A DNA stretch of 64,000 bases from Nitrosopumilus sp. GTDB lineage: Archaea; Thermoproteota; Nitrososphaeria; Nitrososphaerales; Nitrosopumilaceae. Made by a program: the position numbers and the translations under genes. Of this stretch, positions 3,398-48,835 are shown piece by piece. Where the stretch lies: assembly GCA_963662625.1 (NCBI GenBank), contig OY759726.1, forward strand, positions 640,001 to 704,000, given 5' to 3'. The notes under the pieces were generated by a model that saw only the letters and a program-made list of their open reading frames with translations, was not told where the DNA came from and did not search any database. Positions within the stretch are counted from its first letter, which is position 1; the number at the start of each line of letters is the position of its first letter.

Positions 3398-6300
3398 CTA
3401 CGTCGCCGGCGCCAGGCCTATGGCCATCGTGACCGACGAGCCGGGCGCCGGGTCGATCGCCGTGTGCACGCCCTTTATCTTGCTCGCCGCGTCCGTGGGC
3501 GAGGTCGCCACGTACCCCGCCGGGAGGGCCACCTGCGCGACCCAGTCGGCCGGCGCGATGTCGGTCTTCGACGCCGCCCCGCCGGCGCCGGTGGTGACCG
3601 CCTCCAGCTCGTTGGTGGTGTACGAGTAGACGTCGATCCTGATTCCGGGGAACGGCCCCTCGCCGGGGTCCCTGACCCCGTTGGCGTTGTCGTCCCTGTA
3701 CACCGTGGCGTACAGCGAGACGGCCTCCTCGGGCAGCACCTGGCGGAAGCCCACGTCGAAGGTGGCCGTCCCGCCCCTGGCCGGCGCCAGGTACGCGTAG
3801 AAGCTCGGCGTGGTGAGGGTGTGGTCGAACGGGAAGTAGGTGGCCTGGAGCAGCGTGAGGCGCGGCGACGGCGGTATGGCGTCAAAGGCGTACCCGCCGT
3901 CGGCGCCCGTCGTCGATTCCTGCAGGGCGCCGGTCAGCACGTCTATGGCGTACATCGCGTAGCCCGGCAGGCCGGGCTCGCCGGCGCCCTGCCTGCCGTC
4001 GCCGTCGGCGTCGGTGAAGACGGTCCCCGACAGCGTGGCGTAGACCGACGGCGACAGCGGTTCCAGCGCAAAGTCGACGGTCTGGGCGGCCCCCGGGGCC
4101 ACCGTGACCGTCCTGGAGTAGGACTGGCCCGCCGACGGGACGTGCGTGTCCGGCGCGTCCACCTGGGCGGTCCAGGGCCCGGCCGCGACGTTCGAGAAGG
4201 AATAGTACCCGCCGGCGTTGGACCTCGCGGTGTAGGTGGCCCCGGCGCCGTAGAGGGTGACGCCGGCCTCGATCCCGGCCTCCCCCGCGTCCCGGATCCC
4301 GTCGCCGTCGGAGTCGCTGAAGACCGTCCCCCGTATGGACGGGGTGGACGCGGCCCCGCGGTCCTTCCAGGCGCCGCCCTCCACCGCCCAGAGGTTGAAG
4401 CTGCGCAGCGCCAGGTCGCCGTTTGCGTCAAGCGCGTTGGGCCCCAGGGCGCCGCCCGTCCTGGCCGCGGCGGCCGCCGGCACGTGCGGGAGCACGTCCG
4501 TCCCGGTGGCGCTCTGGGCCCGGTCTATGGCCTGGCCCGCCACCCAGACGGCGTCGTAGGAGGAGTACGCGTACACCGACGGGTCCCTGCCCAGGCCGTC
4601 CCTGACGTACTTTGCGACGGCGGCCGTCGCGTCGGTGCGCTGCTCCTTGAACTGGATGGAGGTCAGCCGCGTGGACTCCGCGAACGCCAGCGCCGCCGGG
4701 TCGGCGGTGATCCTGGGGCTGTTGGCGTTCACGCCCGCGTCGAACCACTTCAGCGAGGGGAGCGCGTCCGTGGCGGCCGCGGCGGCCGACAGGCCCGCCA
4801 GCTCGGCCCACCCGAGGAAGAGCACCCCCACGCCCGAGGCGTCGGCGCGGCCCTGGACGGCGGCCTGCGCGGCCCGCGCCGTGGCCGCAAAGTCCGCCGT
4901 GCCCGGCTCGTAGGGCACCCGCGACGCCACGGTGCCGCCCCTGGCCTCGTAGGCCGCCGCGGCGGCGGCGAGCATGTCGTTCCCCCAGGTGTCGTTCCTG
5001 TATATTATCACCAGCGAGTCCGTGCCCGAGTCGACGGCGTGCTGCGCGAGCAGCGGCGCCAGGGAGGTGCTCGTCGGGCTCATCCGGAATATCCCGTCGG
5101 GCTTTGCCAGCGACGGCGCCGCCGAGCAGCAGCTCACCAGCACCATCCCGTTGGCGTTGACATAGTCGGCCACGTACTTTACGCTGGCGCTGGTCGGGAC
5201 CCCGAGCACCACGTCGACGCCCTGGGCCTTGAGGGACTGGATCTGCCTCAGCGTGGTCGGGCCGTCCAGCCCGTTGTCCTGGTACGGCGCGGCCAGCGTC
5301 CACCCCCTGCCCTGCGAGGCGAGCCACGCGTTGAGGTCGTCGACGGCCTTGGCCGACGCCAGCCTGGCCTCCTGCCCCTCCAGCTTTACGGCGGGCGCCT
5401 CGGAGAGCAGCAGCCCCACCTTGACGCTGCCTGCAAGCGGCGTTACGCACGCGCCGGTGTACGGGTGCTGCCCCTGCCCCGGCCCGCACACCCCCGTGGA
5501 GACGGATGTGCCGTCGGTGGTCGCCGCCGCCCGGACGCCGGCGTTCCCCGCCAGGTCGGAATAGTCTATCGAGAACGTGACGGGGGCGCCCAGCGACGCC
5601 AGGTCCGTGAACGTCCGCGACGCCGTCCACGCGTTCCCCTGCCCGCCGGCGGCCTGGGCCGCGGAGCCGTTGATCGTGGCCGAGGGGGCCGATATCGGCT
5701 CGGACGCCGCGAACCCCAGCGTCACGGTGTCGCCCACGGTGGCAAGGCCGGGGTCGGCGTTCGACGAGTACATGGTGACGGAGAGGAGCGACGGGGCCTG
5801 GCCGTCGGCCGCGGGGACGGTGCGGGGCCCGGCAAGCGCGTTGCCGTCGGCGTCGCGGATCCCGCCGCCCAGGGTGAGCGTCGCCGTGGCGTGGGCTGGC
5901 ACCGCGGGGCCGCCGAACGTCACCGCGGCCGAGGGGCCGGATATTGCGGCGGCCGTGGCGGTCCTGGGGCCCCCGGGCGACAGCTCCAGGCCGGTAAAGT
6001 CCGCGGCGGCGGCCGTGACGGGCTCGGTGAAGGTGACGGTTATCTGGTTGGGCCCGGTCACCGCCGAGGAGGCGTGGAGCGGCGGGAGTCCCACGTTGCT
6101 GTAGGTCACCGACGAGCCGTCCGTCGTCGCGGTCACCCGCGCCCCGGCCTGCCCGTCCAGGCCGGTATAGTCTATCGTGAACGCGACCCCGCCGTCGGCG
6201 TCGCCCTGGCCCATGGTCCTGGACGCGGTCCACTGGTTGCCCGACGGGTTGGAGACGCCGGTCACATGGATGCCGCCGATGGTCACCGTGGGGATGGCCA

Positions 6301-9300
6301 CCGTCTCGGAGGCCGTGAAGGTCACCGTGACGGCGTCCCCGACCGTGGCCTGGTACGCGCTCGTCGCGTTGTCCGACGATATGGAGACGGCGGTCAGCGC
6401 CGGCGGCTGGCCCGCCGTGGCGCGCTGGCCGCTGGCCCCCGCAAACGCGGCACCGTCGTTGTCCACCACCCCGGTGCCGATGTCGAGGATGGCCGTGGCG
6501 TCTGTGGACACGCCGGGGCCCCCAAAGGCAAGCACCAGGGTGGCCGAGCCCGAGCCGGATACCGCCGTGACGGCCCTCTGGCCCCCGGGGAAGAGCTGCA
6601 GGTTGGCAAAGTCGGAGGCGGCGGCGCGGACGCCCTCGGAGAAGACCAGCGTTATCTGGTTCGGGCCCGTGACTGCCGCGGACAGCAGCACTGGGACCTG
6701 CCCGGCGGTGACCGCGACGTTGTCCAGCGCCGTAAGCGGGTTGCGCACCAGGTCGGCCACCTGCGACGACACATCCATGACGCCAGAGGCCCCCACCGGG
6801 GCCCTGCCGCCGCCGAAGGTGAGCACTATGGTGTCGGTTCCGGAGCCCGATGCCGCCGTGACTTCCCTCATGTCCGCGCTGCCGCTCAGCCACAGGTTGG
6901 TAAAGTGCGCGGCCTCGGCGTCGACGGGTTCTGAGAACCTGACGGTGATCTCGTTGCCGTCCGTGACCGACGCGGAGACCAGCGTCGGGGGGGCCCTATT
7001 CTCGATCCTTATGGTCTTTGCCCCAAGCGCGATGTCGGCCAGGTCCTTGACGGCGGTGACCTGGACCGTCCCGGTCGTGGTGTCGGGGGCGCGACTGCCG
7101 ATGTAGGTTATGTAATGGATCGAACCGCTCAGATTCGTGTCCGTGACGTTCCTGTAGTCGTCGGTGCCCAGCACCAGCCCCGTGTAGGACGAGCCGGCGT
7201 GGGCTTTGACAGCCTCGGAGTAGGCCACGGCTATTGTCATGCCGGAGGCAAACTCCCCCCGGAGCGCGACCGGGGCCTGCCCGTCGGCCACCGGGATGCC
7301 GGGGTACCTGGCATCAGGGGCCCTCGGCTTCGTGTACCCGTCGGCATCCCCCGCGAACTTGTTGCCCGCGGCATCTGTCACCGAGTCCAGGATGTCGATC
7401 TTTGCGGTGGAGTCGGTCTTTGTGACCCTTGGGCCGTCAAAGGCAATGAGGTATGCGGATCCCGCCCCCGTGACGCCCGTGATCTTTCTGGCGTCCGGGG
7501 AGGCGCCGGGCCCGGGGATGATCCTGAGGTTGTCAAAGTCCGCCCTCGTGGCAGATACCCTCTCGGAGAACTCCGCGGTAAGCTGGTTGGGGCCGGTGAC
7601 GGACATCCTCACGGAGGGGGCCTGCCCGTCGCCGACCAGCTGGTCGTTGAGCGGCCTTATCATGTTTGGCGTGGCGGCTTTGTCGATCAGGGCAGATATG
7701 TCGATGGTCGCGTGGGAGCCGGTGGGGGCCTTGCCGCCGGCGAAGGTGAGCGTTATGGTGCTGGGGTTGGGGAAGGCGATGCCATCGACGGCCCGCGGGT
7801 GGTTGCCGTTGAGCCTCAGGTCGTAAAAGTTGTTCTCGTATGCGGTCACGGGCTCCGAGAACACCAAGGTTATCTGGTTTGCGGCCGTGATCTTGGCGGA
7901 GACCAGCTTCGGGATCTGTCCCGCCGTGACGGTGTAGGTTATGTACCCGGGCGCGTCCGGGACCCAGAGCCTGTTTCCGGCGGGATCGGAGATTCCCCCG
8001 GTGACGCCTATGGTTCCCGAGGTGCCGGTGGGCACGGCTGGGCCGCCGAAGGTAAGGTCAAGGATGGCGGAGGAGGAGTTGGTGGTGTCCGGGGATACGG
8101 AGTTGACGTTCCTGTAGCTGCCGTCGGACAGGCGGAACGACACGAACGCGGACCGTATGTCGCCGCCGGCGGGCGCCGTGACGGGCTCTGAGAACTCCGC
8201 GGTCGCCTTGTTGGGCGCGGTGATGGAGATCGACTCCAGGACGGGCGCCTGCCCGTCGCCGACCGGGATTGCGTATTTCTTGCTGGCAGTGATCGGGTAG
8301 ATTACCCCCGGATACCCCCCCGCGAACTTGTTGGCCGCCGAGCGGTCGGCTACCCGGTTTGATATGTCGATGTAGCCCTGCGCGTCGTCGCCTACGCCCT
8401 TGCCGTCAAAGGTCATGGTGTAGGTGGAGCCCGATCCCGTAAAGCTTGTGATCTCTCTTGCGTCGGTGCTGCCGGCCATGGTGCCGATCCCAAAGCCGGC
8501 AAAGTGATCCCTTGCAGCATAGACGGGCTCCGAGAACTCCGCGGTAAGCTGGTTGGGCCCGGTGACGGACATCTTCACGGTGGGGGCCTGCCCGTCTCCG
8601 ACCCGCTGATTGTCGAGATTCCCGATCGTGTTACGCGGGGTGGCGGCGTCGTAGACGCCCGTGATGTCTATGGTGGCCGTGGAGCCGGTCGGGGCCCCGT
8701 TCCCGCCGGAGTCGTCGGCAAAGGTCAGGGTGTATGTGGCGCTCGGCCCGTTGCCCGGGGATATGCCGGTGATCAACCTTGCGGTGGTGCTGCCGTCGAG
8801 CCTCAGGTCGCCGAAGTCTCCCAGCACGGCGGTGACGGGCTCGGTAAAGATCGCGGTTATTTCGTTGGGCGCGGTGATCCTGACAGAGTCCACGGCCGGG
8901 ATCTGCGCGGCCTCCACGGTTCCGCCCCTCACCGGGGCCAGCCTGTTGCCCGTGGCGTCCGCCACGCCGCTGCTGACGCTGATGGCTGCGGTCTTGCGCA
9001 CGCCTACCGGGCCCGGCGTCGTGTCGGTGCCGATGTCAAACGTGATCTTAAAGTCCGAGGCGGCTGTGCCTTCCGACACGGTGGTTATTCCCCTGGGGGC
9101 GCGCTCGCCGGAGATTGTCAGGTTCGTGACGTTGGAATAGTTGCTATTGTCCCACGCCGTTACGGTGGGTGCATTCATGCGCTCGGAGAACCTCAGTGTG
9201 ACCTGGTCGCTCTCTGTGATGCCAGCCCATTCCAGCCTCGGCGCCTGGCCGTCGTGGACTGCCGCGTTGAACTCGGTGGGGACCGGGTCGCCGGCGAGGA

Positions 9301-10636
9301 GCGCGTGCACGTTCCCCGCAACGTCGGTCAGCGAGTCCTTGACGGTGACGGTCGCCGTGGCGCCCGTGCCCACCCCGTCGCCGTCAAACGTCAGGGTGAG
9401 CGTGTCGGTGCCGGAGCCGGCGACCGCGGTGATGCTCCTGTCCTCCCGGTCGGCGGTGGTGGTGGTGTCGCCGTCGGCGTCTATCACCAGCGCGCCGAAC
9501 GTGCCCGCGCCGGCCAGGACCCGCTCCTGGGACTTTATGGTTATCGTGTTGGGGCCCGAGACCACCATGTACTTGGCGTTCGTCTCGGCGCCTTCTGCCG
9601 GGTGGTCTGCGAGAGCCGGCCTCTGGCCGTCCAATACGGCTACGTTGTATTGCTGCCTTGACGCGTTTGCTGGGGTCGCATCGTCCCTTACCGTGCCGAC
9701 GTTGACCAGGCCCGCGTCTGACACCCCCATGCCTGCACCCGAGAACGTTATGGTGGTGACTCCCGTGGAGGCATCATGGATAACGGTGTCGGGGGCACCA
9801 AGCGACTTGCCGCCTATCCTGAATGCCGAATATGCGCCGGCATCCGAGCTGTGGGGCAGGGGCTCGGACCATTCCACCTGGATCGTGTTGGGGCCCGTGA
9901 CGCGGGCGGATAGGACGTCGGGGGCCTGGGCGTCAGCCAGGTCGGTCTGGCCCCGGGAGGATTCGGCGAGCGGGTTCATGGAGACGTCCCTGATTTTGTC
10001 GGACAGTGTGATGGATCCCGTGGCGCTAGTCTTGGCATCGGTGCCGTAGAATGTTATGGTGTGCGTGTCGGTGCCGGAACCCAGGACCTTCATGATGTTC
10101 CTAGGCGTGTTGGCATGCCCGTTCTGGATTATTCCGAGGGCGGTATAGTCGGCGATTGTTGCCAGCACCCTCTCGTCATAGGTTACGGTGACCACCCTCG
10201 GGCCCGTGACGCTGGCGGACGCAAGCGAGGGCGCGAGGCCGTCGGTCGCCACGACGGACTCGTTGGTGTACGTCTTGGCGTCGTCATCCAGGGCCACCGT
10301 GCCGGTGAGCCTCACGGTGGGCGTGGCGTCCGCGTCCAGCGCGTTGCCGGAGGGCAGGACCAGGGTCGCGGTGGCGGCGCCGTCAGAGTGGGTAATTGAA
10401 GCGGGATTCACGCCGTCGACCGTGAAGGCGGCCTGGCTGGAGGTCAGGTCATCCACGCCGGCCGCGAAGGTCACCGTCACCTGCAGGTTCGCGGCGGCGT
10501 TGTCATCGGAACCTCCGGTCTGCGCCCCCTCGAGGATGTTGCCGGGGGCCGTCTGCGCGAGGGACTCGCCTGCCAGCGAGGGGGCCATGATCGCCGACGC
10601 GGCAAGGATCGCGAGCAGCGCGGCATGGGACCTCGT
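3398..10636 (-). CDS. Giant secreted protein, paralog A (Ig-like repeats + type I substrate-binding domain + 3 SdrD_B-like repeats); inferred ACG start
   Basis: 7.2-kb open frame. Signal peptide RSHAALLAILAASAIMAPSLAGESLA, repeats DGQxP...TGPNxxTxxFSE, LivJ-like domain and GTVFxDxDGDG repeats. ORF track uses an upstream TTG at 10765. Confidence 0.9.
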   Translation of the reverse strand, partial: TRSHAALLAILAASAIMAPSLAGESLAQTAPGNILEGAQTGGSDDNAAANLQVTVTFAAGVDDLTSSQAAFTVDGVNPASITHSDGAATATLVLPSGNALDADATPTVRLTGTVALDDDAKTYTNESVVATDGLAPSLASASVTGPRVVTVTYDERVLATIADYTALGIIQNGHANTPRNIMKVLGSGTDTHTITFYGTDAKTSATGSITLSDKIRDVSMNPLAESSRGQTDLADAQAPDVLSARVTGPNTIQVEWSEPLPHSSDAGAYSAFRIGGKSLGAPDTVIHDASTGVTTITFSGAGMGVSDAGLVNVGTVRDDATPANASRQQYNVAVLDGQRPALADHPAEGAETNAKYMVVSGPNTITIKSQERVLAGAGTFGALVIDADGDTTTTADREDRSITAVAGSGTDTLTLTFDGDGVGTGATATVTVKDSLTDVAGNVHALLAGDPVPTEFNAAVHDGQAPRLEWAGITESDQVTLRFSERMNAPTVTAWDNSNYSNVTNLTISGERAPRGITTVSEGTAASDFKITFDIGTDTTPGPVGVRKTAAISVSSGVADATGNRLAPVRGGTVEAAQIPAVDSVRITAPNEITAIFTEPVTAVLGDFGDLRLDGSTTARLITGISPGNGPSATYTLTFADDSGGNGAPTGSTATIDITGVYDAATPRNTIGNLDNQRVGDGQAPTVKMSVTGPNQLTAEFSEPVYAARDHFAGFGIGTMAGSTDAREITSFTGSGSTYTMTFDGKGVGDDAQGYIDISNRVADRSAANKFAGGYPGVIYPITASKKYAIPVGDGQAPVLESISITAPNKATAEFSEPVTAPAGGDIRSAFVSFRLSDGSYRNVNSVSPDTTNSSSAILDLTFGGPAVPTGTSGTIGVTGGISDPAGNRLWVPDAPGYITYTVTAGQIPKLVSAKITAANQITLVFSEPVTAYENNFYDLRLNGNHPRAVDGIAFPNPSTITLTFAGGKAPTGSHATIDISALIDKAATPNMIRPLNDQLVGDGQAPSVRMSVTGPNQLTAEFSERVSATRADFDNLRIIPGPGASPDARKITGVTGAGSAYLIAFDGPRVTKTDSTAKIDILDSVTDAAGNKFAGDADGYTKPRAPDARYPGIPVADGQAPVALRGEFASGMTIAVAYSEAVKAHAGSSYTGLVLGTDDYRNVTDTNLSGSIHYITYIGSRAPDTTTGTVQVTAVKDLADIALGAKTIRIENRAPPTLVSASVTDGNEITVRFSEPVDAEAAHFTNLWLSGSADMREVTAASGSGTDTIVLTFGGGRAPVGASGVMDVSSQVADLVRNPLTALDNVAVTAGQVPVLLSAAVTGPNQITLVFSEGVRAAASDFANLQLFPGGQRAVTAVSGSGSATLVLAFGGPGVSTDATAILDIGTGVVDNDGAAFAGASGQRATAGQPPALTAVSISSDNATSAYQATVGDAVTVTFTASETVAIPTVTIGGIHVTGVSNPSGNQWTASRTMGQGDADGGVAFTIDYTGLDGQAGARVTATTDGSSVTYSNVGLPPLHASSAVTGPNQITVTFTEPVTAAAADFTGLELSPGGPRTATAAAISGPSAAVTFGGPAVPAHATATLTLGGGIRDADGNALAGPRTVPAADGQAPSLLSVTMYSSNADPGLATVGDTVTLGFAASEPISAPSATINGSAAQAAGGQGNAWTASRTFTDLASLGAPVTFSIDYSDLAGNAGVRAAATTDGTSVSTGVCGPGQGQHPYTGACVTPLAGSVKVGLLLSEAPAVKLEGQEARLASAKAVDDLNAWLASQGRGWTLAAPYQDNGLDGPTTLRQIQSLKAQGVDVVLGVPTSASVKYVADYVNANGMVLVSCCSAAPSLAKPDGIFRMSPTSTSLAPLLAQHAVDSGTDSLVIIYRNDTWGNDMLAAAAAAYEARGGTVASRVPYEPGTADFAATARAAQAAVQGRADASGVGVLFLGWAELAGLSAAAAATDALPSLKWFDAGVNANSPRITADPAALAFAESTRLTSIQFKEQRTDATAAVAKYVRDGLGRDPSVYAYSSYDAVWVAGQAIDRAQSATGTDVLPHVPAAAAARTGGALGPNALDANGDLALRSFNLWAVEGGAWKDRGAASTPSIRGTVFSDSDGDGIRDAGEAGIEAGVTLYGAGATYTARSNAGGYYSFSNVAAGPWTAQVDAPDTHVPSAGQSYSRTVTVAPGAAQTVDFALEPLSPSVYATLSGTVFTDADGDGRQGAGEPGLPGYAMYAIDVLTGALQESTTGADGGYAFDAIPPSPRLTLLQATYFPFDHTLTTPSFYAYLAPARGGTATFDVGFRQVLPEEAVSLYATVYRDDNANGVRDPGEGPFPGIRIDVYSYTTNELEAVTTGAGGAASKTDIAPADWVAQVALPAGYVATSPTDAASKIKGVHTAIDPAPGSSVTMAIGLAPAT

Positions 10637-10637
10637 C

Positions 10638-10775
10638 TCATTCCACCCCCACGGTAGCGGCGGGCCCCGGGCCCGCGGGGACGCGGCCTGTGACGAAAGG
10701 GCCACATGGCCCGCATCCTGCCGCGGCGTGCGGAACTGTTTTTGCGGGTCCCGTCGCCATGTCAAATCCCCTCAT
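10638..10775 (-). CDS. Leader ORF, 45 aa with CGPC motif, upstream of paralog A
   Basis: MRGFDMATGPAKTVPHAAAGCGPCGPFVTGRVPAGPGPAATVGVE*. ATG about 23 nt below TTTTAATA. Same position as the B/C leader ORFs. Confidence 0.6.
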   Translation of the reverse strand: MRGFDMATGPAKTVPHAAAGCGPCGPFVTGRVPAGPGPAATVGVE

Positions 10776-10797
10776 GGTGGTCTAGTGTAGTAATCAG

Positions 10798-10805
10798 TAT
10801 TAAAA
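10798..10805 (-). promoter_or_regulatory. TATA box for the paralog A transcript
   Basis: TTTTAATA on the minus strand at canonical distance from ATG 10775. Confidence 0.6.
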
Positions 10806-10827
10806 CCACTGCATTCACTAGCTGCAA

Positions 10828-10905
10828 GAGGTCACGTATGCTGACCGTTTAACCAACAAGGCGCGATCCTGCTGATCCTTATGGCAGGAGGTGCTAGTAC
10901 GTGCG
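10828..10905 (+). mobile_element. Left end of an IS66-like element
   Basis: Near match to the reverse complement of about 53510-53587 (GAGGTCACGTATGCTGACC...). Confidence 0.65.
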
Positions 10906-12138
10906 TGCGTACATGCACGGGAAGGAGGGCAGATCCATACGCCAGACGGGCAGGCTGCTCAACAGGCCGTACTCCACGGTGCGCAGGTGGCTCCTGCATG
11001 CCGTGGAGAGCGGCGGCATGTCCGGCAGGCATGACGCGGCGCCGCCCGGCGCCCCCTGCAGGCGGGACGCCTCCCAGCTCAGGGAGCTCAGGGCGGACCT
11101 GGTGGCCGGGCCCAGGAGGTGCGGCCTGGAGTCCGGGGCGCGGGCCGCGCCGCTCGTCGTGCGGCACGTGCAGGACAGGTTCGGCGTGCGGCACGGCGAC
11201 CGCGGCATGTACGACCTACTGGTGAGGCCGGGCTTCCCGCGCGGGAAGCCCGGGCCCGGGCACCCCAAACCGGCCTCGGAAAGCGCGAAGGCCGGGTTCA
11301 AAAAAAAGCGGCGGGCGCCGCCAGGCGGTACGCCGTCCTCGCCGGGACGAGTCCTCCCACATAATCGGGCGGGACGCCAGGAACGGCTGGTACCCGAGGG
11401 GCAGGGAGGCCGCCACGCCGGTCAGCCCCTCCAGGGAAAGGTCCTGCCCGTTCGGGGCGCGATCCGGGAACTGGTCCGGCTGCAGGTCCTGCGACGAGGC
11501 AAACGGTGACAGCTTCACGGGCTTTCTCTCGTACCTGCACGGGAAGCACGGTAAGTTCGTGATGCCCGTGGACAACGCGAGCTACCGCAAGTCCAAGAAG
11601 TTGGACTTGTGCCATGACGCGTTGCCTGCGGACACGGGCACCTTGCCGAACCTCCTGCGCACCCTGCCCTGAAACCTTATGGACGTAGTTACGGTGTTAA
11701 ATATTGGATCATCTTGACGGTCTTGACCACCCCGCTGCCAGGCATGGCCCGTATCGGCTCCTGCATCTCCCCCGTGCCGTCGTGCAGGACGTTGGACGTG
11801 CCGTGCCTGATCCCCTTCCACTGTACCTCTGCCGGGTTCAGCTCCGGCGTGTAGGGCGGGGAAGTACTCCAGCACCACGTCGCCCTTGAACCCGTCCAGC
11901 GCCCCTGCCAAGGCGGTGCTGCGCCACGTGGGGGAGTGCGGGGACGTCCGGCTGGAGCACTTTCCCCCGCACGCCCCGGAGCTTGACGGCGCCAGGGTGC
12001 AGTGGAGGGTGGCGGGGAACTCCATGGGCAAACCGCCTGTACGCGGACGGCGGGGAGGCCGTGGGGCCCATACGCGCCATGATCCGCAAGAGGGAGATCG
12101 TTCCGGTCAAAATGAACGATTGCTTGATGTGTTGACTA
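10905..12138. mobile_element. Nested decayed IS630-family fragments in both orientations
   Basis: Winged-HTH ORF A homologous to 50258-50830, A-run frameshift site at 11300, DNASYRKS and LEHFPPHAPEL motifs. Inverted end TACGGTGTTAAATATTGGATCA at 11690 and end GTTGACTA at 12131-12138. Confidence 0.8.
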
Positions 12139-12319
12139 CGGGCACGCTCCACGTTGGGGTACCTCGCCCCCGGCAGGTACGCCGGGCCGTGGCAGCAGTG
12201 CGAGGAGGACGCCAAGCGGGGCGACAAACGGACGGTTGGAGGCGAAAAGTGTGCATGAATTGCCGCCAAAAGTGGGATCAAAGAGAGGGAGCCACTCCAT
12301 GGGCGTGCGTCCCTCGCGG

Positions 12320-12405
12320 GAGTCGGCAATCCGTTCGTTTGGTTATGGGCACGCCTGTGGCAGGTGCCGTCTGAAACCGGCTTTTTCGGTACGCCTGTAG
12401 TTGCG
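12320..12405 (-). mobile_element. Left-end remnant of an IS110/IS1111-type element
   Basis: Aligns with 59760-59848 and the reverse complement of 49137-49230. Confidence 0.6.
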
Positions 12406-12423
12406 TGGGCCCGTGGCAGACAC

Positions 12424-19683: not shown

Positions 19684-19684
19684 C

Positions 19685-19807
19685 CTAGATCATGCCCTCC
19701 ATAGTTCCTATGGGTGGCAGACTCTCAAAAATGCCCTCTGCTGGGGGCGTGCAACGCTTGCATTCCGCCACGGTACGTGGCACTAGTACATTGAATTCCG
19801 CTTTCAT
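19685..19807 (-). CDS. Leader ORF, 40 aa with CKRC motif, upstream of paralog B
   Basis: MKAEFNVLVPRTVAECKRCTPPAEGIFESLPPIGTMEGMI*. ATG about 25 nt below TTTTATATA, and TAG-G-ATG junction with B. Confidence 0.6.
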   Translation of the reverse strand: MKAEFNVLVPRTVAECKRCTPPAEGIFESLPPIGTMEGMI

Positions 19808-19831
19808 GTTAGACTTACGTATGGAATTGAG

Positions 19832-19840
19832 TATATAAAA
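19832..19840 (-). promoter_or_regulatory. TATA box for the paralog B transcript
   Basis: TTTTATATA, also present upstream of C (48984-48992). Confidence 0.65.
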
Positions 19841-19986
19841 GTAGTGTTAAAAATTGCGGCGGCCTGGGATCGGAATGCGGGTTTTTTCATCCTGTGCCAA
19901 ACACGGACAGCTTGCGCTCCCGGCAGATGCAGGAGGCTGCAGGGCCGGGCCGGGGATCTCGCCGCCACGTTCTGCCGGGCCTTCCA

Positions 19987-20118: not shown

Positions 20119-20227
20119 CAGTTGCCGCGTCTTGGAACGCGGTGCCCGGGGGCCGCCTGCCCGTGCAACCCGCTCGGGGCCGCCCTCCAAATCCATATAT
20201 GATAACGGTTGCGAAATTTTGTAACTT

Positions 20228-21235: not shown

Positions 21236-21271
21236 GGGCCGGAAACGCGCCGGCGCGGGGGGCGCCCGCGG

Positions 21272-26970: not shown

Positions 26971-26992
26971 GGCGTGTGGCGGGCCGCCGGGC

Positions 26993-34001: not shown

Positions 34002-34034
34002 CTCGTATCCATGGGGGCGGGCCATATAATATGT

Positions 34035-35288
<1,254 letters not shown>

Positions 35289-35289
35289 G

Positions 35290-36384: not shown

Positions 36385-36514
36385 GCAGGTATGGTCGCGC
36401 CGGATCCTATTAATTACTTTCAGGCCCAGCGGCCTGCCGCGTGACCGGGTTCCCGGGCACGGAAAGGCAGCCCCGGGGGCCGGTACGGGCGGGGCCGCGC
36501 GGCAGGCCGGGCCC

Positions 36515-37760: not shown

Positions 37761-37805
37761 GGCCCTTGGGAAAGCGTATTATACGGCCCGGATCCATGTA
37801 GGGTC

Positions 37806-37895
37806 AGCGGGGTGGGGAAGTCAGGCCATTTGGGACTAGGTCATCCCGGCGGGCTCATAACCCGCAAATCAGTAGTTCAAATCTACTCCCCGCTA
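37806..37895 (+). tRNA. Initiator tRNA-Met (CAT) with a 15-nt D-loop intron (37825-37839)
   Basis: Acceptor stem AGCGGGG/CCCCGCT (A1-U72, one mismatch), GCGGG-CTCATAA-CCCGC anticodon arm and GTTCAAATC T-loop. BHB motif AGTC-AGG...GACT-AGG. Confidence 0.93.
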
Positions 37896-37896
37896 C

Positions 37897-39222: not shown

Positions 39223-39297
39223 GTGGCGGGGCCCGGCACTTTTAGTTGTTTGACCCGCAGTTGGTTTAAATTGTTACCGGGGCCCTCCTAGGGCGGG

Positions 39298-40293: not shown

Positions 40294-40302
40294 GGCGCCC
40301 CG

Positions 40303-41373: not shown

Positions 41374-41569
41374 GGTTTTGTGCGGTTCTTTCTCTAGTTA
41401 TATGAGCTTCGGGCGCGGTTAGCCGTACAAAGTTCGGGTCGGATTCAGCATGGCGGGGAGCGCTGGCCGCGGTTTAGCGCGTGTCAGAGAACAGGACGGC
41501 GCGGGGGTGTCCGGGTTGTGGTTGCATGCAAAAGCGACGGGGGGTGGCCCGCCGGGCCCCGTGGGGTGC

Positions 41570-44500
41570 CTACGGCGACGCCGCCAGGCCTATCAGCATG
41601 GTGACCGACGAGCCGGGGGCCGGGTCGACTGCCGTGTAGGCGCCTGCCACCCCGGTCACGGGGTCGGCCGGGGCCGTCGCGACATAGCCGGCCGGCGGGT
41701 ACGCCTGCGCCTGCCAGTTGGCCGGCAGCAGGTCCGTCTTCGTGGCCACGCCGTCGTCGCCGGTGGTTATGGCGTCTATCGTGTTGATGGTGTACGAGTA
41801 GATCTGGACCTGCGCCCCCGGGAACGCGGCCTCGCCGGCGTCCCTGATGCCGTTGGCGTTGGCGTCCATGTAGGCGGTCACCGACAGGGACACCCGCTCG
41901 GACTGCGGCACGGGGTAGAAGCCGACGTCGAACGTCTCGACTGCGCGCCTCTCCGGGGTGACGTACGAGTAGAAGGCGTCCGTGCTCAGGGTGTGGCCCG
42001 GCGGGAAGTAGCCCGTCTGGACCAGCGTGAGGCGCGGCGCCGGCGCTATGCTGTCGAAGGCGTACGTGCCGTCGGGGCCGGTCGTGGCGGTCACCGACTG
42101 GCCGGACAGCGCGTCGATGGCGTACATCGTGTAGCCTGCCATGCCGGCCTCGCCGGAGCCCCGCGTGCCGTCGCCGTCGGCGTCCACGAAGACCGTCCCG
42201 GTGACGGTGGCGTAGTTGGACGCCGAGAGCGGCTCCAGCGCAAAGTCGACCGTCTGGGTGGCGCCCGCCGCCACGGTCACCGTCTCGAAGAAGGACTGGC
42301 CCACGGACGGGACGTGCGTGGCCGGCATGGCCACCTGGACTGTCCAGTCGCCGCCCGCCACGTCCGAGAAGGAGTAGTACCCGCCGGCGTTGGACCTGGA
42401 GGTGTACGAGGTGGAGCCGTTGAACAGCGTCACGTCTGCCTCGATGCCCGCCTCGAGCGCGCCCTTCGCGCCGTTGGCGTCGGCGTCGCTGAAGACGGTC
42501 CCCTGCACGGACGGGGTGGACACGGTGCCCAGGTCCTTCCAGGCGCCGCCCTGGACAGCCCAGAGGTTGTAGTTATGGAGCGCCAGGTCGCCGTTGGCGT
42601 CCAGCGCGTTGGGGCCGATGGCGCCGCTGGTCCTGGACGCGGCCACCGCGGGGACGTGCTGGAGCATGTCCGTGCCGGTGGCGCTCTGCGCCCGGTCTAT
42701 GGCCATCCCGGCCACCCAGACGGCGTCGTACGCGGAGTACGCGTAGACCGTCGGATCCCTGCCGAGGTTCTCCCTGACGTGTTCCATCACCTCGACGGTC
42801 TTGTCGGTGCGCTGCTCCTTGAACTGGATGGAGGTCATGCCGGTGGAGGTGGCAAAGGCGAGCGCCGTCGCGTCAATGGTTATCCTTGGGGTATTTGCGT
42901 TTATGCCGGAATCGAACCACGTCAGCGAGGGGAGCGTGTCCGTGGTGCTCGCGGCGGCCGACAGGTTCACGAGTTCGGCCCATCCCAGGAAGAGCACCCC
43001 GACGCCCGAGAGGTCGGCGCGTCCCTGGACTGCCGCCTGCGCGGCGGCCGCCGTGTCCGCAAAGTCCGTCGTGCCCGGCTCGTACGCCACCTGGGCGATC
43101 ACCGAGCCGCCCCTTGCCTGGTATGACGCCGTCACGACGTCGAGGAGCCCGGCGCCCCAGGTGTCGTCCCTGTATATGATTACCAGCGAGTTCTTGCCCG
43201 AGTCCACGATGTGCTGGGCGAGGATCGGCGCGTGCGCGACGCTGGTGGGGCTCATCCGGAAGACGTTGTCGGGCTGTGCCAGTGACTCCGCTGTAGAGCA
43301 GCAGCTCACCAGCACCATCCCGTTGGCGTTGACATAGTCAATGACGTAACTGACGCTGGCGCTTGTCGGGACGCCCAGCACCACGTCTACGCCCTCGGTC
43401 TTGAGGGCCTGCACCTGCGCCAGCGTGGTCGGGCCGTCGATCCTGTTGTCCTGGTACGGGGCCACGAGCGTCCAGTCCCTGCCCTGGTCTGCCAGCCACT
43501 GGTTAAAGTCGGTCACGGCCTTTGCGGAAGTCAGTATGGTCTCCTGACCCTCCGCCTTGAATTCTGGCGCGTCAGAGAGCAGCAGCCCCACCTTGACGTT
43601 GCCGGCAAGCGGGGTTATGCACTGGCTGGTGTACGGGTGCGGCTCCTGCCCCGGCGGGCACTGGCCCGTGGAGACGGCGCTGCCGTCGGTGGTGGACACC
43701 ACCCGGACCCCCTGGTTCATGGAGTCGTCGGCATAGTCCACCGAGAACGTTATGGAGGCGCCCAGCGACGCCGCGTCGGTGAAGGTCCGCGCCGCCGTCC
43801 ACTGGTTGCCCGATGCGTTGGAGGCCTGGACGGTGGAGCCGTTCATGGAGACTATGGGGTCGGAGATCGGCTCGGACGCCGTGAAGCTCAGGGTCACCGT
43901 GTCGCCCACGGTTGCAAAGCCCGGGTCGTCGTTGGACGACGCCAGGCCCACGAACGGCAGCGACGGGGCCTGCCCGTCGGCGGCGGCGACGTTGAGCGGC
44001 CCGGCAAACATGTTGCCGTCGGCGTCCGTGATGCCGGAGCCCACGGTGACTGACGCCGTGGCGTAGGCCGGGACCGCGGCGCCGCCGAAGGTCACCGTGA
44101 CGGAGGAGCCTGCGCTGGCGGCGCCGGTGACGTTCCTGACGCCGCCCGGTATCAGGGTCATGTTGGCAAAGTCAGCCGCGGAAGCCGTCACGGGCTCGGT
44201 GAATGTCACCGTGACGGAGTTGGGCCCGGTCACCGCCGAGGAGACGTGCAGCGGCGAGAGCCCCACGTTGCTGTAAAAGACCGACGAGCCGTCGGTGGTG
44301 GCCGTCGCCCGCGTGCCGTCGTTGCCGTCCATGTCTGAATAGTCGATCGTGAAGGCGAGCCTGCCGTCGGTGTCGCCCTGCTGCATCACCCTGGAGGCGG
44401 TCCACTGGTTGCCCGTCAGGTTGTAGACGCTGTCGGCGGCGTTGCCGTCGATGGTGACCGCCGGGAGCGATATCGCCTCGGACGCCGTGAAGCCCAGGGT

Positions 44501-47500
44501 CACCGTGTCGCCCACGGTGGCCTGCGAGGCGTTTGTCTGGTTGTCGGAGGACATGGTGACGCTGGACAGCGCTGGCGGCTGTCCCGCCTCCGCCCTGTAG
44601 CCCGTGACGGCCACGAACGCGGTGCCGTCGTTGTCCACGATTCCCGTGGTGACGTCCAGCAGGGCGGTCGCCGCCGTGGACACGGCGGGGCCGTCAAACG
44701 TGAGCGTTATGGTGTCCGTGCCGGAGCCCGAGACCGCCGTGACGCTCCTGGGGCCCCCCGGGAATAGCTGCAGGTTGGCAAACGCCGAGGCGCCGGCGGT
44801 GACCCCCTCGGAGAAGGCCACGGTTATCTGGTTCGGGCCCGTGACGGCCGCGGACACCAGGACTGGCACCTGCCCGGCGGCCACCATGTAGCCGGTCTTT
44901 GGCGAAAGGGCGTTTCCTATCAGGTCGGCTATGGAATCCGACACGTCCATCTGGCCGGAGGTCCCCACGGGGGCCTTGGGGCCGTCAAACGTGAGCGTTA
45001 TGGTGTCCGTGCCGGAGCCGGCGGCGCCGGTGACGTTCCTGGGATCGACGGCGTCGCCCACCACCAGACCGGTAAAGTCCGCGGCAGACGCCGTCACGGG
45101 CTCGGAGAATGTCACCGTGACCCGGTCGCTGCCGGTGATCCTGGCGGACAGAAGGGTCGGGTCGCCCATCGCTTCCACCTTTATGCTCCCTGCCTCGAGC
45201 GCGATGTCGGCCAGGTCCTTGACGCCGGTGACGTTGTTGATCACCCCGGTGGTGGACCGGTCCACGTCGTCGCCCGTGAAGAGCAGCTGGTGCGTCGCGG
45301 TCGTGAACTGCCCGCCAGCAGGGTCCCTGTTGTCGTTGGCGCCAAACACCAGGTCGGGGTAGGAGGTCACCGCGTTGGCGGTCACGCCCTCAGAGTACAC
45401 GATCTTTATGGAGTTGGCGTCGGCGAACTCCCCGCGGAGCACCAGCGGGGCCTGCCCGTCGGAGACCGGCACCCCGGCGAACTTGCCCTCCGTCTGGGGG
45501 GTCTTGGTGCCGTCGGCGGAGAATCCCGCAAACGCGTTCTGGCCGCGCGAGGTGTCCGATATGCCGGCCATTATGTCGATCTTGGCGGTGGCGTCGGTCC
45601 CTACCGCGTCGCCGTCGAAGGCCATGGTGTACGTGGAGCCCGATCCGGCGAATCCCGTGATCTTCCTTGCCTCGTCCTCGTAGAGGACGTTGTTGCTGCT
45701 GTCGGTGCCCGCGGCGATCATGAGGCCGTCAAAGTCCGCCAGTTCAGTGGCGACCGGCTCGGTGAACTCCGCCGTCAGCTGGTTGGGGCCGGTGATCGAC
45801 ACCGTCACCCTCGGCGGCTGCCCGTCCTCTACCGCCTTGTCCTGGAGGGGCTTTAGCGTGTTCCGCGGGGAGGCGTTGTCGATCGGGCCCGCTATGTCCA
45901 CGGTCGCGACCGCGTCGGTCCCCACCGGGTCCCCGTCGAAGGTCAGCTCGACCGCGGCGGCGATAGTGGAGACGTTCGTGACGGCCCTCGCCGTGGGGCT
46001 GCCGTCGATCCTCAGGTCGGTGTAGTCGCCCGGAAACGTGCTTACGCTCTCGGAGAACTCCACGGTCAGCTGGTTGGGGCCGGTCACTTTGGCGGAGAGC
46101 ACCGTCGGGATCTGCCCCGCCTTGACGGCGTAGTTGACGTACCCGGGCGGGCTCGGCACCTGGAACGCGTTTCCTGACGTGTCCTCGATTCCGCCGGTGA
46201 CGTTTACCGTCCCGCTGGTGCCGGTTGGCACGCCCGTGCCGCCGAAGGTCAGCTTGATGGAGGCTGACGGCTCACTCGTCACATCGTTGATGTTGCGGAA
46301 GTTGCCGTCGGACAGGCGGAACGCCACGAACGCGGACTTGAGGTCGCCGCCGTCGGGCTCTTTGACCGCTTCGGAGAACTTTGCGGTCACCTGGTTGGGC
46401 CCGGTGATGGAGATCGACTCCAGGGCGGGCGCCTGGCCGTCGCCGACCGGGACGTCCGCGTACTTGCCGGCGACGGGCTCGGTGGCGGCGCCGTCACCGT
46501 CACGGACCACGAACTTGTTGCCCGCCGGCCTGTCGGCCACCTTGCCGGAGATGTCGACGTAGCCGGTCGCGTCGTCGGCGACGGGGTCGCCGTTGAAGGC
46601 CATGGTGTACGTGGAGCCCGATCCCGCGAATCCCGTGATCTTCCTCGCTTCCCCGCCGGTGGTGGGGCCGATCGTGAGGCCGTCAAAGTCCGCCATCCTC
46701 GCGATGACCGGCTCGGTGAACTCCGCCGTCAGCTGGTTGGGGCCGGTGATCGACAGCTCCACCTCCGGCCGCTGCCCGTCGGACACCGGCTGGTTGTCGA
46801 TGTCGACTTTTCCGATGGCGTTGGGGGGAGTCGCGCCGTCTACCACGCTCTTTGAGATGTCTATGGTGGCCGTGGCGCCCGTGCCCACCTTGTCGCCGCC
46901 GAAGGTCAGGGTGTATGTGGCGCTCGGCCCGTTGCCCGGGGATATGCCGCTGAGCGTTCTTGCGGTGGCGCTGCCGTCGATCCGCAGGTCGTTGAAGTCT
47001 CCCTGCACTGCGGTGACGGACTCGGTGAACACCACGGTCACCTGGTCGGGGCCGGTGATCTCTATGGACTTGACCGCCGGCCTCTGCGAGGCGTCCACGG
47101 CGACCCCCGACCTCGCGACGATCGGGTTGCCCTTGGAGTCCAGCACGCCTTTGCCCACGCTGATGGTGCCGGTGCTGTCGGCCGGGGCGCTAGCAAGGGG
47201 CGGGACGTCGTCGTTGGAACCAAAGGTGATGTCGTAGGCGTTTGGAATGGAGGAGTGGGCGGCGGCGCTGGTCAGGGTACTGGCCGTGCGCTGGCCCGTG
47301 ACCAGGAAGTCGGTGATGTTGGTCAGAACGCCGCCGGTGGTGGCGGTGATGGTGCCGCCACCCATGGCCTCGGAGAACGTCACGGTGACTTTGTTGGCTG
47401 TGGTGATACCCGCCGACACCAGGGTGGGCGCCTGGCCGTCGTAGACTGCCACGTCGGTGACCTGGGCGGGGACCGGGTCGCCGGCGAGGAGCGCGTGCAC

Positions 47501-48835
47501 GTTCCCCGCAACGTCGGTCAGCGAGTCCTTGACGGTGACGGTCGCCGTGGCGCCCGTGCCCACCCCGTCGCCGTCAAACGTCAGGGTGAGCGTGTCGGTG
47601 CCGGAGCCGGCGACCGCGGTGATGCTCCTGTCATCCTGGTCGGCGGTGGTGCTGGTGTCGCCGTCGGCGTCTATCACCAGCGCGCCGAACGTGCCCGCGC
47701 CGGCCAGGACCCGCTCCTGGGACTTTATGGTTATCGTGTTGGGGCCCGAGACCACCATGTACTTGTCGTCCGTCTCGGCGCCTTCTGCCGGGTGGTCTGC
47801 GAGAGCCGGCCTCTGGCCGTCGGTCACTATCACGTTCAGCCGCGCGGCCGAGTCGTTCGCAGACGTCGCGTCGTCTGACACCACGCCTACGTTGAGGAGG
47901 CCCGTGGCCGAGACTTTCAACGCGGTGCCGGTCGCCAGCGTTAGCGTGGTGGTGCCGTTAAGATGGGTGGCGCCGTCGTTGGCAAGCGTCACTATCTTGC
48001 CGTCAATCCTGATGTTGGTATAGTCCTCAGCCGTATCGCTCGCGTCGGACAGGGTTTCGGACCATTTCACCTGGATCTTGTCGGTGCCCGTGACCGTGGC
48101 CGACACGACGTACGGGGCCTGGGCATCAATCAAATCCTGCTCGGGGACCGCGGCCAGCTCGTTCGTGGCAAGGTCGGCCACGCCGCCGGAGATGGCTATA
48201 GTCCCACTGGCCCCGGTCGAGGCCGGGGTGCCGTAGAAGGTTATGGTGTGCGTGTCGGTGCCGGAGCCCGAGAGCTTCATGATGTTCCTGGGCAGGTCAG
48301 TGGCGTTCTCGACGCCCTGGTTTATCTCCAGGGTGGTATAGTCGGTAATCTTTGCGACCACCCTCTCGTCGTACTTTACGGTGACCTTGTTCGGGCCGGT
48401 GACCGCGGTACCCGCGGCGACGACGCTGGGCTTGACGCCGTCGGTCGCCACGACGGACTCGTTGGTGTACGTCTCGGTGGCGTCGTCATCCAGGGCCACC
48501 GTGCCGGTGAGCCTCACGGTGGGCGTGGCGTCCGCGTCCAGCGCGTTGCCGGAGGGCAGGACCAGGGTCGCGGTGGCGGCGCCGTCAGAGTGGGTAATTG
48601 AAGCGGGATTCACGCCGTCGACCGTGAAGGCGGCCTGGCTGGAGGTCAGGTCATCCACGTCGGCCGCGAAGGTCACCGTCACCTGCAGGTTCGCGTCGAT
48701 GTTGTCAACGGAACCTCCGGTCTGCGCCCCCTTGAGGATGCTGTCGGGGGCCGTCTGCGCGAAGGACTCGCCTGCCAATGAGAAAGCGGACACCATTGAC
48801 ACCGCGAGTATCGCGAAGAGTACCGTGTTGTTCAT
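41570..48835 (-). CDS. Giant secreted protein, paralog C (2421 aa), near-copy of B with A-like patches
   Basis: Translation matches B except the N-terminal domain, binding-domain loops and a few isolated residues. Confidence 0.93.
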   Translation of the reverse strand: MNNTVLFAILAVSMVSAFSLAGESFAQTAPDSILKGAQTGGSVDNIDANLQVTVTFAADVDDLTSSQAAFTVDGVNPASITHSDGAATATLVLPSGNALDADATPTVRLTGTVALDDDATETYTNESVVATDGVKPSVVAAGTAVTGPNKVTVKYDERVVAKITDYTTLEINQGVENATDLPRNIMKLSGSGTDTHTITFYGTPASTGASGTIAISGGVADLATNELAAVPEQDLIDAQAPYVVSATVTGTDKIQVKWSETLSDASDTAEDYTNIRIDGKIVTLANDGATHLNGTTTLTLATGTALKVSATGLLNVGVVSDDATSANDSAARLNVIVTDGQRPALADHPAEGAETDDKYMVVSGPNTITIKSQERVLAGAGTFGALVIDADGDTSTTADQDDRSITAVAGSGTDTLTLTFDGDGVGTGATATVTVKDSLTDVAGNVHALLAGDPVPAQVTDVAVYDGQAPTLVSAGITTANKVTVTFSEAMGGGTITATTGGVLTNITDFLVTGQRTASTLTSAAAHSSIPNAYDITFGSNDDVPPLASAPADSTGTISVGKGVLDSKGNPIVARSGVAVDASQRPAVKSIEITGPDQVTVVFTESVTAVQGDFNDLRIDGSATARTLSGISPGNGPSATYTLTFGGDKVGTGATATIDISKSVVDGATPPNAIGKVDIDNQPVSDGQRPEVELSITGPNQLTAEFTEPVIARMADFDGLTIGPTTGGEARKITGFAGSGSTYTMAFNGDPVADDATGYVDISGKVADRPAGNKFVVRDGDGAATEPVAGKYADVPVGDGQAPALESISITGPNQVTAKFSEAVKEPDGGDLKSAFVAFRLSDGNFRNINDVTSEPSASIKLTFGGTGVPTGTSGTVNVTGGIEDTSGNAFQVPSPPGYVNYAVKAGQIPTVLSAKVTGPNQLTVEFSESVSTFPGDYTDLRIDGSPTARAVTNVSTIAAAVELTFDGDPVGTDAVATVDIAGPIDNASPRNTLKPLQDKAVEDGQPPRVTVSITGPNQLTAEFTEPVATELADFDGLMIAAGTDSSNNVLYEDEARKITGFAGSGSTYTMAFDGDAVGTDATAKIDIMAGISDTSRGQNAFAGFSADGTKTPQTEGKFAGVPVSDGQAPLVLRGEFADANSIKIVYSEGVTANAVTSYPDLVFGANDNRDPAGGQFTTATHQLLFTGDDVDRSTTGVINNVTGVKDLADIALEAGSIKVEAMGDPTLLSARITGSDRVTVTFSEPVTASAADFTGLVVGDAVDPRNVTGAAGSGTDTITLTFDGPKAPVGTSGQMDVSDSIADLIGNALSPKTGYMVAAGQVPVLVSAAVTGPNQITVAFSEGVTAGASAFANLQLFPGGPRSVTAVSGSGTDTITLTFDGPAVSTAATALLDVTTGIVDNDGTAFVAVTGYRAEAGQPPALSSVTMSSDNQTNASQATVGDTVTLGFTASEAISLPAVTIDGNAADSVYNLTGNQWTASRVMQQGDTDGRLAFTIDYSDMDGNDGTRATATTDGSSVFYSNVGLSPLHVSSAVTGPNSVTVTFTEPVTASAADFANMTLIPGGVRNVTGAASAGSSVTVTFGGAAVPAYATASVTVGSGITDADGNMFAGPLNVAAADGQAPSLPFVGLASSNDDPGFATVGDTVTLSFTASEPISDPIVSMNGSTVQASNASGNQWTAARTFTDAASLGASITFSVDYADDSMNQGVRVVSTTDGSAVSTGQCPPGQEPHPYTSQCITPLAGNVKVGLLLSDAPEFKAEGQETILTSAKAVTDFNQWLADQGRDWTLVAPYQDNRIDGPTTLAQVQALKTEGVDVVLGVPTSASVSYVIDYVNANGMVLVSCCSTAESLAQPDNVFRMSPTSVAHAPILAQHIVDSGKNSLVIIYRDDTWGAGLLDVVTASYQARGGSVIAQVAYEPGTTDFADTAAAAQAAVQGRADLSGVGVLFLGWAELVNLSAAASTTDTLPSLTWFDSGINANTPRITIDATALAFATSTGMTSIQFKEQRTDKTVEVMEHVRENLGRDPTVYAYSAYDAVWVAGMAIDRAQSATGTDMLQHVPAVAASRTSGAIGPNALDANGDLALHNYNLWAVQGGAWKDLGTVSTPSVQGTVFSDADANGAKGALEAGIEADVTLFNGSTSYTSRSNAGGYYSFSDVAGGDWTVQVAMPATHVPSVGQSFFETVTVAAGATQTVDFALEPLSASNYATVTGTVFVDADGDGTRGSGEAGMAGYTMYAIDALSGQSVTATTGPDGTYAFDSIAPAPRLTLVQTGYFPPGHTLSTDAFYSYVTPERRAVETFDVGFYPVPQSERVSLSVTAYMDANANGIRDAGEAAFPGAQVQIYSYTINTIDAITTGDDGVATKTDLLPANWQAQAYPPAGYVATAPADPVTGVAGAYTAVDPAPGSSVTMLIGLAASP

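Follow-up and report, generated by a model that had tools for sequence, protein, structure and literature searches.

In the antigenic-variation systems vlsE of Borrelia, pilE/pilS of Neisseria and msp2 of Anaplasma, one expression site is supplied by many promoterless partial cassettes, and switching occurs at high frequency. In Helicobacter pylori, the three adhesin loci babA, babB and babC are described as exchanging 5′ and 3′ segments by gene conversion, which yields chimeric genes (PMC4552749). Concerted evolution of prokaryotic paralogs has been reported for the tandem lpl cluster of Staphylococcus aureus (PMC2568036) and is the subject of a survey (PMC6053082). In the Thermococcales, VARTIG is presented as a large archaeal protein with multiple immunoglobulin-like (Ig) domains, one of which is hypervariable through recombination (PMC8416519). 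Here we analyze three giant surface-protein genes, A, B and C, that lie in a 64,000-nucleotide stretch of a Nitrosopumilus sp. genome (contig OY759726.1, positions 640,001 to 704,000), hereafter called the window. An earlier note on this DNA had proposed that the three genes exchange patches in a diversification system comparable to vlsE, pilE and msp2.

We find that the mosaic among the three genes is real and that it includes one whole outer domain. There is strong support for segmental gene conversion among them, and it is quite probable that A, B and C recombine by ordinary ectopic, non-reciprocal gene conversion through the RadA machinery and not through a dedicated switching device. What the locus has in common with vlsE, pilE and msp2 is segmental, probably non-reciprocal copying into a surface-protein gene; the cassette archive, the single expression site and the high-frequency switching of those systems were not found here. 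The nearest analogue appears to be bab, by likeness of mechanism and not of family. In both cases three full-length surface-protein paralogs at three loci undergo intragenomic conversion, and their 3′ parts are kept alike; the 5′ exchange lies about 60 to 240 bp from the start codon in the bab genes as described and 106 to 347 nucleotides (nt) from it here (PMC4552749). However, bab belongs to a bacterium and encodes beta-barrel outer-membrane proteins of an unrelated family, its conversion is reported also to move a CT-repeat phase-variation switch whereas no repeat switch is present here, and the many chimeric genotypes recorded for it come from 160 isolates, whereas ours is one genome (PMC4552749). 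With lpl and other described cases of concerted evolution, the locus shares near-identical tracts in diverged paralogs, synonymous identity and general homologous recombination (PMC2568036, PMC6053082). Unlike the examples presented there, the tracts here match whole Ig-like domains of 7.3-kb genes in an ammonia-oxidizing archaeon, with three event ages at one locus. VARTIG resembles the proteins studied here in being large and archaeal and in having several Ig domains, of which recombination varies one, but the account of it places the variation in the C-terminal Ig domain and the exchange between genomes, whereas in our case paralogs within a single genome exchange the N-terminal domain; VARTIG is also accompanied by variable downstream partner genes, and no partner module is present here (PMC8416519).

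The three genes are the following.

3398-10765, minus strand: gene A, an open frame of 2,455 codons from TTG, likely donor of the first domain of C
12424-19683, minus strand: gene B, 2,419 amino acids (aa), at the ancestral (syntenic) locus
41570-48835, minus strand: gene C, 2,421 aa, with a B-type scaffold, an A-type first domain and a partly A-like binding domain

All three genes have one layout, with a signal-peptide-like N-terminus, about 16 Ig-like repeats, a binding domain and three C-terminal SdrD_B stretches; they are paralogous and encode giant secreted surface proteins. The repeats measure 95 to 125 aa each; 12 of the about 16 per protein carry the strand motif that we searched for, and their spacing fits the domain limits. 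Pfam matches exceed the curated cut-offs both for Big_5 in the repeat region (53 to 67 bits) and for the three SdrD_B stretches at the extreme C-terminus of each protein (65 to 85 bits). A type-I periplasmic-binding domain (Peripla_BP_6/ANF_receptor) occupies aa ~1,780 to 2,117; Peripla_BP_6 scores 95.4 bits in A (Pfam cut-off, 31.7), ANF_receptor scores 63 to 80 bits in A, B and C, and the domain matches PDB 4mlc_A by sequence (E = 1.6e-12). The structure predicted for aa 1 to 340 of C from a 9-row alignment (mean predicted local distance difference test score, 81) has beta-sandwich domains at 33 to 129, 144 to 237 and 243 to 339, and the best PDB matches of this model in a fold search are tandem Ig/FN3 arrays. 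Over the whole gene, A is 71.4% identical to B and 73.2% identical to C at the nucleotide level. The body of A is intact, and none of its indels relative to B shifts the frame.

We aligned A, B and C with their flanks, listed each difference between B and C and counted the differences by region (C coordinates).

Promoter and leader, 159 columns: 2 differences
First 105 coding nt: 0 differences
48730-48489 (patch), 242 columns: 113 differences
48488-43569, 4,920 nt: 2 differences (one codon)
43568-42363 (binding-domain island), 1,206 columns: 112 differences
Last 793 nt: 0 differences

The tracts that these counts delimit, and those shared with A, are as follows.

48489-48730, minus strand: A-type patch in C, equivalent to A 10287-10528; B counterpart 19343-19578; aa 36-116
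10287-10528, minus strand: counterpart of the patch in A, presumed donor; G+C content (GC) 0.71, neighboring 5′ sequence 0.72
47468-47821, minus strand: 354-nt block in C, equivalent to B 18322-18675 and A 9278-9631, 349/354 matches; C aa 339-456
46902-46949, minus strand: 48-nt exact block in C, equivalent to B 17756-17803 and A 8721-8768
42363-43568, minus strand: mosaic island in the periplasmic-binding domain of C, equivalent to B 13217-14422

B and C had been described in the earlier note as essentially identical over about 4.9 kb and as having a common promoter, and both observations stand. The long tract, C 48488-43569, corresponds to B 19342-14423, and its two differences fall in a single codon (C 48307/48306, aa 177, GGC/AAC). 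At the 3′ end, C 42362-41570 and B 13216-12424 are identical at every position, and identity stops at the stop codon. Of the 112 sites that distinguish B from C within the binding-domain island, A sides with C at 62, with B at 35 and with neither of them at 15; B and C have 78 unlike codons in the island, 53 of them non-synonymous. The 793-nt 3′ block, this 1.2-kb island and the missing start region of A (see below) are newly seen here.

The patch at the N-terminus is where C parts from B and follows A. As the earlier note had it, the first domain of C is near-identical to that of A and unlike that of B: B and C disagree in 113 of the 242 columns aligned (47%), and at these sites A agrees with C 110 times, with B once and with neither twice. 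A and C themselves differ at 5 nt in the patch (A>T, G>A, C>T, C>A and G>A), all of them non-synonymous, and exact A = C runs extend over C 48732-48478. On the predicted structure, the patch would cover the first beta-sandwich domain minus its last strand. Its left edge lies in the conserved end of the signal peptide and its right edge in a 38-nt stretch that is identical in all three genes. Passing from the sequence before the patch into the patch itself, GC changes from 0.72 to 0.71 in A, from 0.58 to 0.60 in B and from 0.58 to 0.69 in C. Because the GC of the patch fits the surroundings in A, while the B version fits the surroundings in B and C, domain 1 was probably transferred from A to C. 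The outgroups for domain 1 (two sister species and two metagenome proteins) were only 25 to 42% identical, and P0005 alone favored the B type.

The blocks common to all three genes were also borne out. The block put at about 350 bp matches at 349 of 354 positions, and the 48-bp block is exact, with its A copy at 8721-8768, one base off the 8722-8769 given before. The 354-nt block is one whole Ig-like domain (domain 4), which starts at a DGQxP linker and stops just before the next one, in flanks that are 50 to 65% identical. Its five A-C differences are all non-synonymous. The only motif common to the tract ends is conserved linker-coding DNA.

Could chance or constraint on the proteins have produced these tracts? 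The longest A-C run of concordant polymorphic sites was 83, compared to a null maximum of 6 in 10,000 shuffles, and when C was treated as the child of B and A in a 3SEQ-like test, the maximum descent reached 102, compared to a null maximum of 7. Exact A-B runs of 165, 113, 51 and 48 nt were set against a codon-shuffled null with a mean of 29 and a maximum of 56, and the best A-B window of 354 nt had 349 matches where the codon-shuffled maximum was 297. Chance is rejected for the mosaic, and the three-way comparison that the earlier note had named as a check yields significant conversion tracts by permutation, 3SEQ-like and codon-shuffle tests. Synonymous divergence (dS, pS) was 0.00 in a 60-codon window inside the block (A 9535-9356, B 18579-18400), where the A-B and A-C values are equal since B and C are the same, and A-C pS was 0.00 in a window over most of the patch (A 10405-10229). 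The gene-wide A-B values, in contrast, were a dS of 0.48 and a pS of 0.35. Hence, protein-level constraint or purifying selection alone is insufficient to account for the block and the patch. All 10 nucleotide differences in these two A-derived tracts are non-synonymous, which is suggestive yet marginal given that an estimated three-quarters of sites are non-synonymous.

De Bruijn contigs of four public runs (X1 to X4, representing three samples of one study), built independently of the assembly, were aligned to C. No RNA run is among the public runs listed for this DNA. Distinguishing letters are 3 to 14 nt apart at each edge of the patch, and therefore C-specific 31-mers exist in the reads. 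Contigs with 0 differences cover both patch junctions in X1 (48437-48695 and 48666-49207) and in X4 (46726-48495 and 48493-49077), the last of which reaches the unique sequence upstream of C. In X2, a different sample, contigs break exactly at the predicted identity boundaries, and a separate 354-nt contig at 47468-47821 has a depth of 70.1. Depth in X2 was 23.1 for the contig that skips the patch (the B version), 24.6 to 25.2 for the binding-domain island of C and 45 to 50 for the parts in which B and C are identical; inside the patch it was 50 where C is identical to A and 28.1 where the sequence is C specific. These depths are 1:2:3 copies, as the assembly predicts, and the reference mosaic is thus present at single-copy depth in a second sample. 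No other letters occurred over 43569-48488 in any of the listed contigs of the four runs. No alternative letters were listed in the patch for the X1 or X2 contigs, although rare variants may drop from contigs. Two patterns of a kind that bubble popping or low depth may produce were seen: X2 contig 41569-42659 reads as B type at 42363 and 42477 and as C type further along, and in X3 the patch is covered by an A-type contig only. In all four runs, we also observed a contig that agrees with C as far as 46358 and then from 47647 onward but carries 37 other letters in the interval; the depths of this contig (17.5, 8.95, 5.97 and 3.67) do not track those of the organism, and it may belong to a relative or to another gene with similar Ig repeats.

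The tracts are thus beyond chance, identical at synonymous sites, set in diverged flanks and joined across junctions that the read contigs contain. On these grounds the earlier claim of segmental conversion among the loci is upheld, and its specific form, an exchange between A and C of the first Ig-like domain at the N-terminus, is strongly supported by the site patterns, the permutation tests and the read contigs.

The starts of the genes bear on which copies are expressed, and the relevant features are these.

48836-48994, minus strand: promoter and leader of C, equivalent to B 19684-19842, 98.7% identical
C 48837-48959 and B 19685-19807, minus strand: upstream small open reading frame (ORF), 40 codons
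B 19685-19840 and C 48837-48992; L015 5815-5985 (minus strand); L022 1480-1680 (plus strand): conserved unit of TATA box and small ORF

In B and C, the TATA box is 24 nt upstream of the small ORF, whose stop codon is 1 nt before the main ATG. Each of the three genomes of the genus has this unit directly upstream of a giant gene; the ORF has 40 to 42 codons, and its N-terminal, central and C-terminal motifs and its frame are conserved. A search for the unit in 151 genomes, namely that of the window and a drawn sample of 150 others of the family, matched 4, that of the window included. Of the 25 other genera in the sample, 24 gave no match, and the one match beyond the genus is weak and partial (E = 0.004, model positions 4-88 only). 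The small ORF may encode a translationally coupled leader peptide, and the substitution pattern of the leader fits a translated small ORF better than a structured RNA. The leader was also tried as a structured RNA, which we rejected (best Rfam E = 0.79; folding z-score, -1.6; one compensatory pair seen by eye). A is without the conserved TATA box and small-ORF sequence, which are kept in B, C and two sister species, and the ATG of A that matches the B/C start is out of frame with the 2,455-codon frame (window 10588-10810). The in-frame starts of A are limited to TTG 10765, GTG 10705 and ATG 10588, and use of the last would drop the signal peptide. Hence, A may be weakly expressed or silent despite its intact body. 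No invertible element, inverted repeats or simple-repeat tracts were found near the gene starts.

Perhaps A is then a silent full-length donor in a dedicated surface-variation system, with B and C as expression sites that are varied by frequent directed conversion? The lost TATA box and leader of A and its out-of-frame ancestral ATG would suit such a system, as would the confinement of B/C differences to the distal and ligand-binding domains, which are plausible specificity determinants; the 10 of 10 non-synonymous differences in the A-derived tracts and the position of domain 1 as the least conserved part between species point the same way. However, there are only three full-length copies and no cassette archive anywhere in the genome. 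By blastn, the first 3,163 nt of A and the first 1,771 nt of B have no match outside the three genes, and a whole-genome tblastn search with aa 1-460/500 returned generic Ig repeats only (27 to 44% identity), none of them over domain 1. Nor is there the single expression site of cassette systems, since TATA box, leader and ATG are the same in B as in C. Conversion here mostly homogenizes and does not diversify, the same mosaic recurs at single-copy depth in the second sample with no alternative patch letters listed in X1 or X2, and the starts are free of any invertible element or simple-repeat switch. Neither does the locus resemble a diversity-generating retroelement: the 99.5%-complete genome has no RVT_1 match, and hence no reverse transcriptase, and the A-C patch differences are not adenine specific. 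A dedicated system is therefore quite unlikely, and the likening to vlsE, pilE and msp2 is not supported by these results, with all copies full length, no cassettes, mostly homogenizing exchange and an unchanged mosaic in the second sample. One point does lean towards the earlier view, in that A, the likely donor, could be a silent copy.

C could instead be a very recent whole-gene duplicate of B, with islands imported from the alleles of other strains and not from A. Identity between B and C from 159 nt upstream to the stop codon amounts to one gene unit, C has mobile-element debris as its neighbor whereas the syntenic locus is that of B, the binding-domain island is without a near-identical donor in the genome and the patch differs from A at 5 sites. 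Yet a 98%-identical donor for the patch, namely A, is only 38 kb away, with exact runs of 182 and 35 nt, and the 354-nt and 48-nt A blocks need intragenomic exchange anyway. Protein searches also gave no close alleles: with the N-terminal 340 aa there were no shorter fragments at E <= 0.001, and in a near-length search the next best match, outside the genome, is 39% identical. We regard such an origin of C as unlikely. Still more doubtful, and highly improbable in our judgment, is an assembly artefact, in which collapsed or over-polished paralogs or a chimeric join would have brought A-type sequence into C. Assemblers and polishers are classically misled by paralogs such as these, with 4.9 kb of identity at a distance of 29 kb, and the best-matching runs are possibly the source of the assembly itself. 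Nevertheless, words specific to the junctions in C occur to either side of the patch in the independent X1 and X4 contigs, which show 0 differences, the X2 contigs break at the predicted boundaries with depths of 1:2:3, and the listed contigs of all four runs are free of other letters over the long B/C tract.

We favor ordinary ectopic gene conversion. The genome encodes a RadA homologue (Rad51/RadA family match, 297.9 bits), and homologous recombination primed by short conserved linker DNA would place tract ends in linkers and so exchange whole domains. The tract edges do lie in conserved DGQxP-linker DNA and agree with the domain limits of the predicted structure. The events differ in age. 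Domain 4 (354 nt, divergence of 1.4%) and domain 1 (242 nt, 2.1%) were exchanged earlier, from A to B/C. Homogenization of B and C (1 codon in 4.9 kb, 0/793 at the 3′ end and 0/105 at the 5′ end) is very recent and the latest, because the A-derived tracts are 1.4 to 2.1% diverged from A while B and C are essentially undiverged. The B/C tracts stop at the patch and the island, perhaps where homology ends, perhaps where selection keeps specificity regions different, or both. Conversion would then mostly make B and C alike, with one event having swapped the outermost domain. The net effect is that B and C have an identical stalk and anchor and differ in their outermost Ig-like and ligand-binding domains; these head differences may be a by-product, possibly a useful one, of recombination between repeats.

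Several points weigh against this account. For the binding-domain island in which B and C differ, blastn found no donor of at least 90% identity elsewhere in the genome, and the island may have come from another strain or may simply be old. Non-reciprocity and direction cannot be shown from one genome. The five A-C differences in the patch, compared to the near-zero B-C divergence, suggest that the patch was not the latest event; alternatively, its true donor is an A-like allele that is absent from this genome. X1 and X4 are possibly from the source sample of the assembly, and all four runs come from one study. Finally, contigs lose rare variants and give no phase across more than 31 nt of identity.

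We also considered whether this probably host-associated archaeon uses conversion adaptively, with A as a full-length, translationally disabled reservoir that supplies head modules to the expressed B and C, an idea that we hold to be doubtful. If true, the head modules would be the outermost Ig-like domain and segments of the binding domain, and the stalk and anchor would be kept identical by continual homogenization. The locus would then be a minimal archaeal counterpart of bacterial adhesin-repertoire switching, under host, phage or ligand pressure.

The surroundings of the genes differ. B adjoins a divergently oriented phosphoglucose isomerase gene, and in a relative of the same genus the only homologue with the same leader also adjoins a divergent phosphoglucose isomerase gene (61% identity); B occupies the ancestral locus. 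C sits between an alcohol dehydrogenase gene and a run of mobile-element fragments. Fragments of this kind near A and C include the following.

10828-11604, plus strand: IS630-like transposase fragment, 63 nt upstream of A
49847-50698: inverted copy of this fragment, upstream of C, 91 to 94% identical
10901-11509, plus strand, and 50258-50830, minus strand: IS630-like helix-turn-helix fragments, upstream of A and C

The regions upstream of A (10766-12423) and C (48995-52200) are a patchwork of repeat fragments that recur genome-wide. As direct repeats with 4.9 kb of identity at a distance of 29 kb, B and C flank 22 kb of housekeeping genes; between them lie the histidine (his) operon and the genes for HMG-CoA reductase, TiaS and diphthamide synthesis. 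Recombination between B and C would delete or duplicate this block. The C-terminal SdrD_B module occurs at 29 loci genome-wide, A, B and C included, in open frames of up to 3,035 aa, and it ends within 10 residues of the stop codon at 24 of the 29. It looks like a shared surface-attachment or sorting module of a large family of secreted proteins. Examples are given here.

C1:1711629-1712450: SdrD_B locus
C1:1436822-1437451: SdrD_B locus
C1:109539-110048: SdrD_B locus

The genome is one contig of 1,858,698 bp with a GC of 63.4%. It encodes an archaeal AmoA, and genes for TiaS, diphthamide synthase and HMG-CoA reductase lie within the window; judged by this gene content, the host is therefore an ammonia-oxidizing archaeon. 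GC values of 47 to 67% have been reported for sponge-associated members (PMC7848895), and the high GC of this genome lies within that range, which is a matter of consistency only and does not amount to an identification. The ends of the window (1-2000 and 54000-64000) have a GC of 0.52 to 0.58, compared to 0.66 to 0.74 between them, and these low-GC flanks carry defense- or mobile-type genes.

260-1462: ClpP-like SDH protease
57219-57893: AbiV-like HEPN
61357-61689: ParE toxin
63145-63972: PAPS-reductase-domain gene

Is such shuffling a habit of the family? In a related genus (genome G008), one tandem pair of binding-domain paralogs is about 50% identical in the first half and 70 to 88% identical in the second, and another pair of paralogs is 87% identical with an exact run of 129 nt. 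Older domain-level mosaicism thus seems to occur among tandem binding-domain paralogs in related genera, as though shuffling were habitual in the family. A same-genus genome (G001), however, has four paralogs of about 1,300 aa that are 65 to 73% identical with no exact run above 40 nt. Because these paralogs are without recent tracts, recent conversion does not appear to be universal in the family. A search of the open-access literature and bioRxiv found no paper on gene conversion among surface-protein paralogs of ammonia-oxidizing archaea. To our knowledge, domain-swap gene conversion is undescribed in this lineage, although the process itself is well known.

New here are the mosaic binding domain of C, the placement of B at the ancestral locus and the finding that A is without the conserved promoter, leader and in-frame ATG. 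A practical lesson is that such repeats, with 4.9 kb of identity at a distance of 29 kb, put assemblies at risk. Cell-surface evolution in ammonia-oxidizing archaea is little known, and the locus offers a read-supported case in which homologous recombination shuffles whole domains between giant surface-protein genes of such an archaeon. The pattern marks the outermost and binding domains as the parts most likely to determine what these proteins bind.

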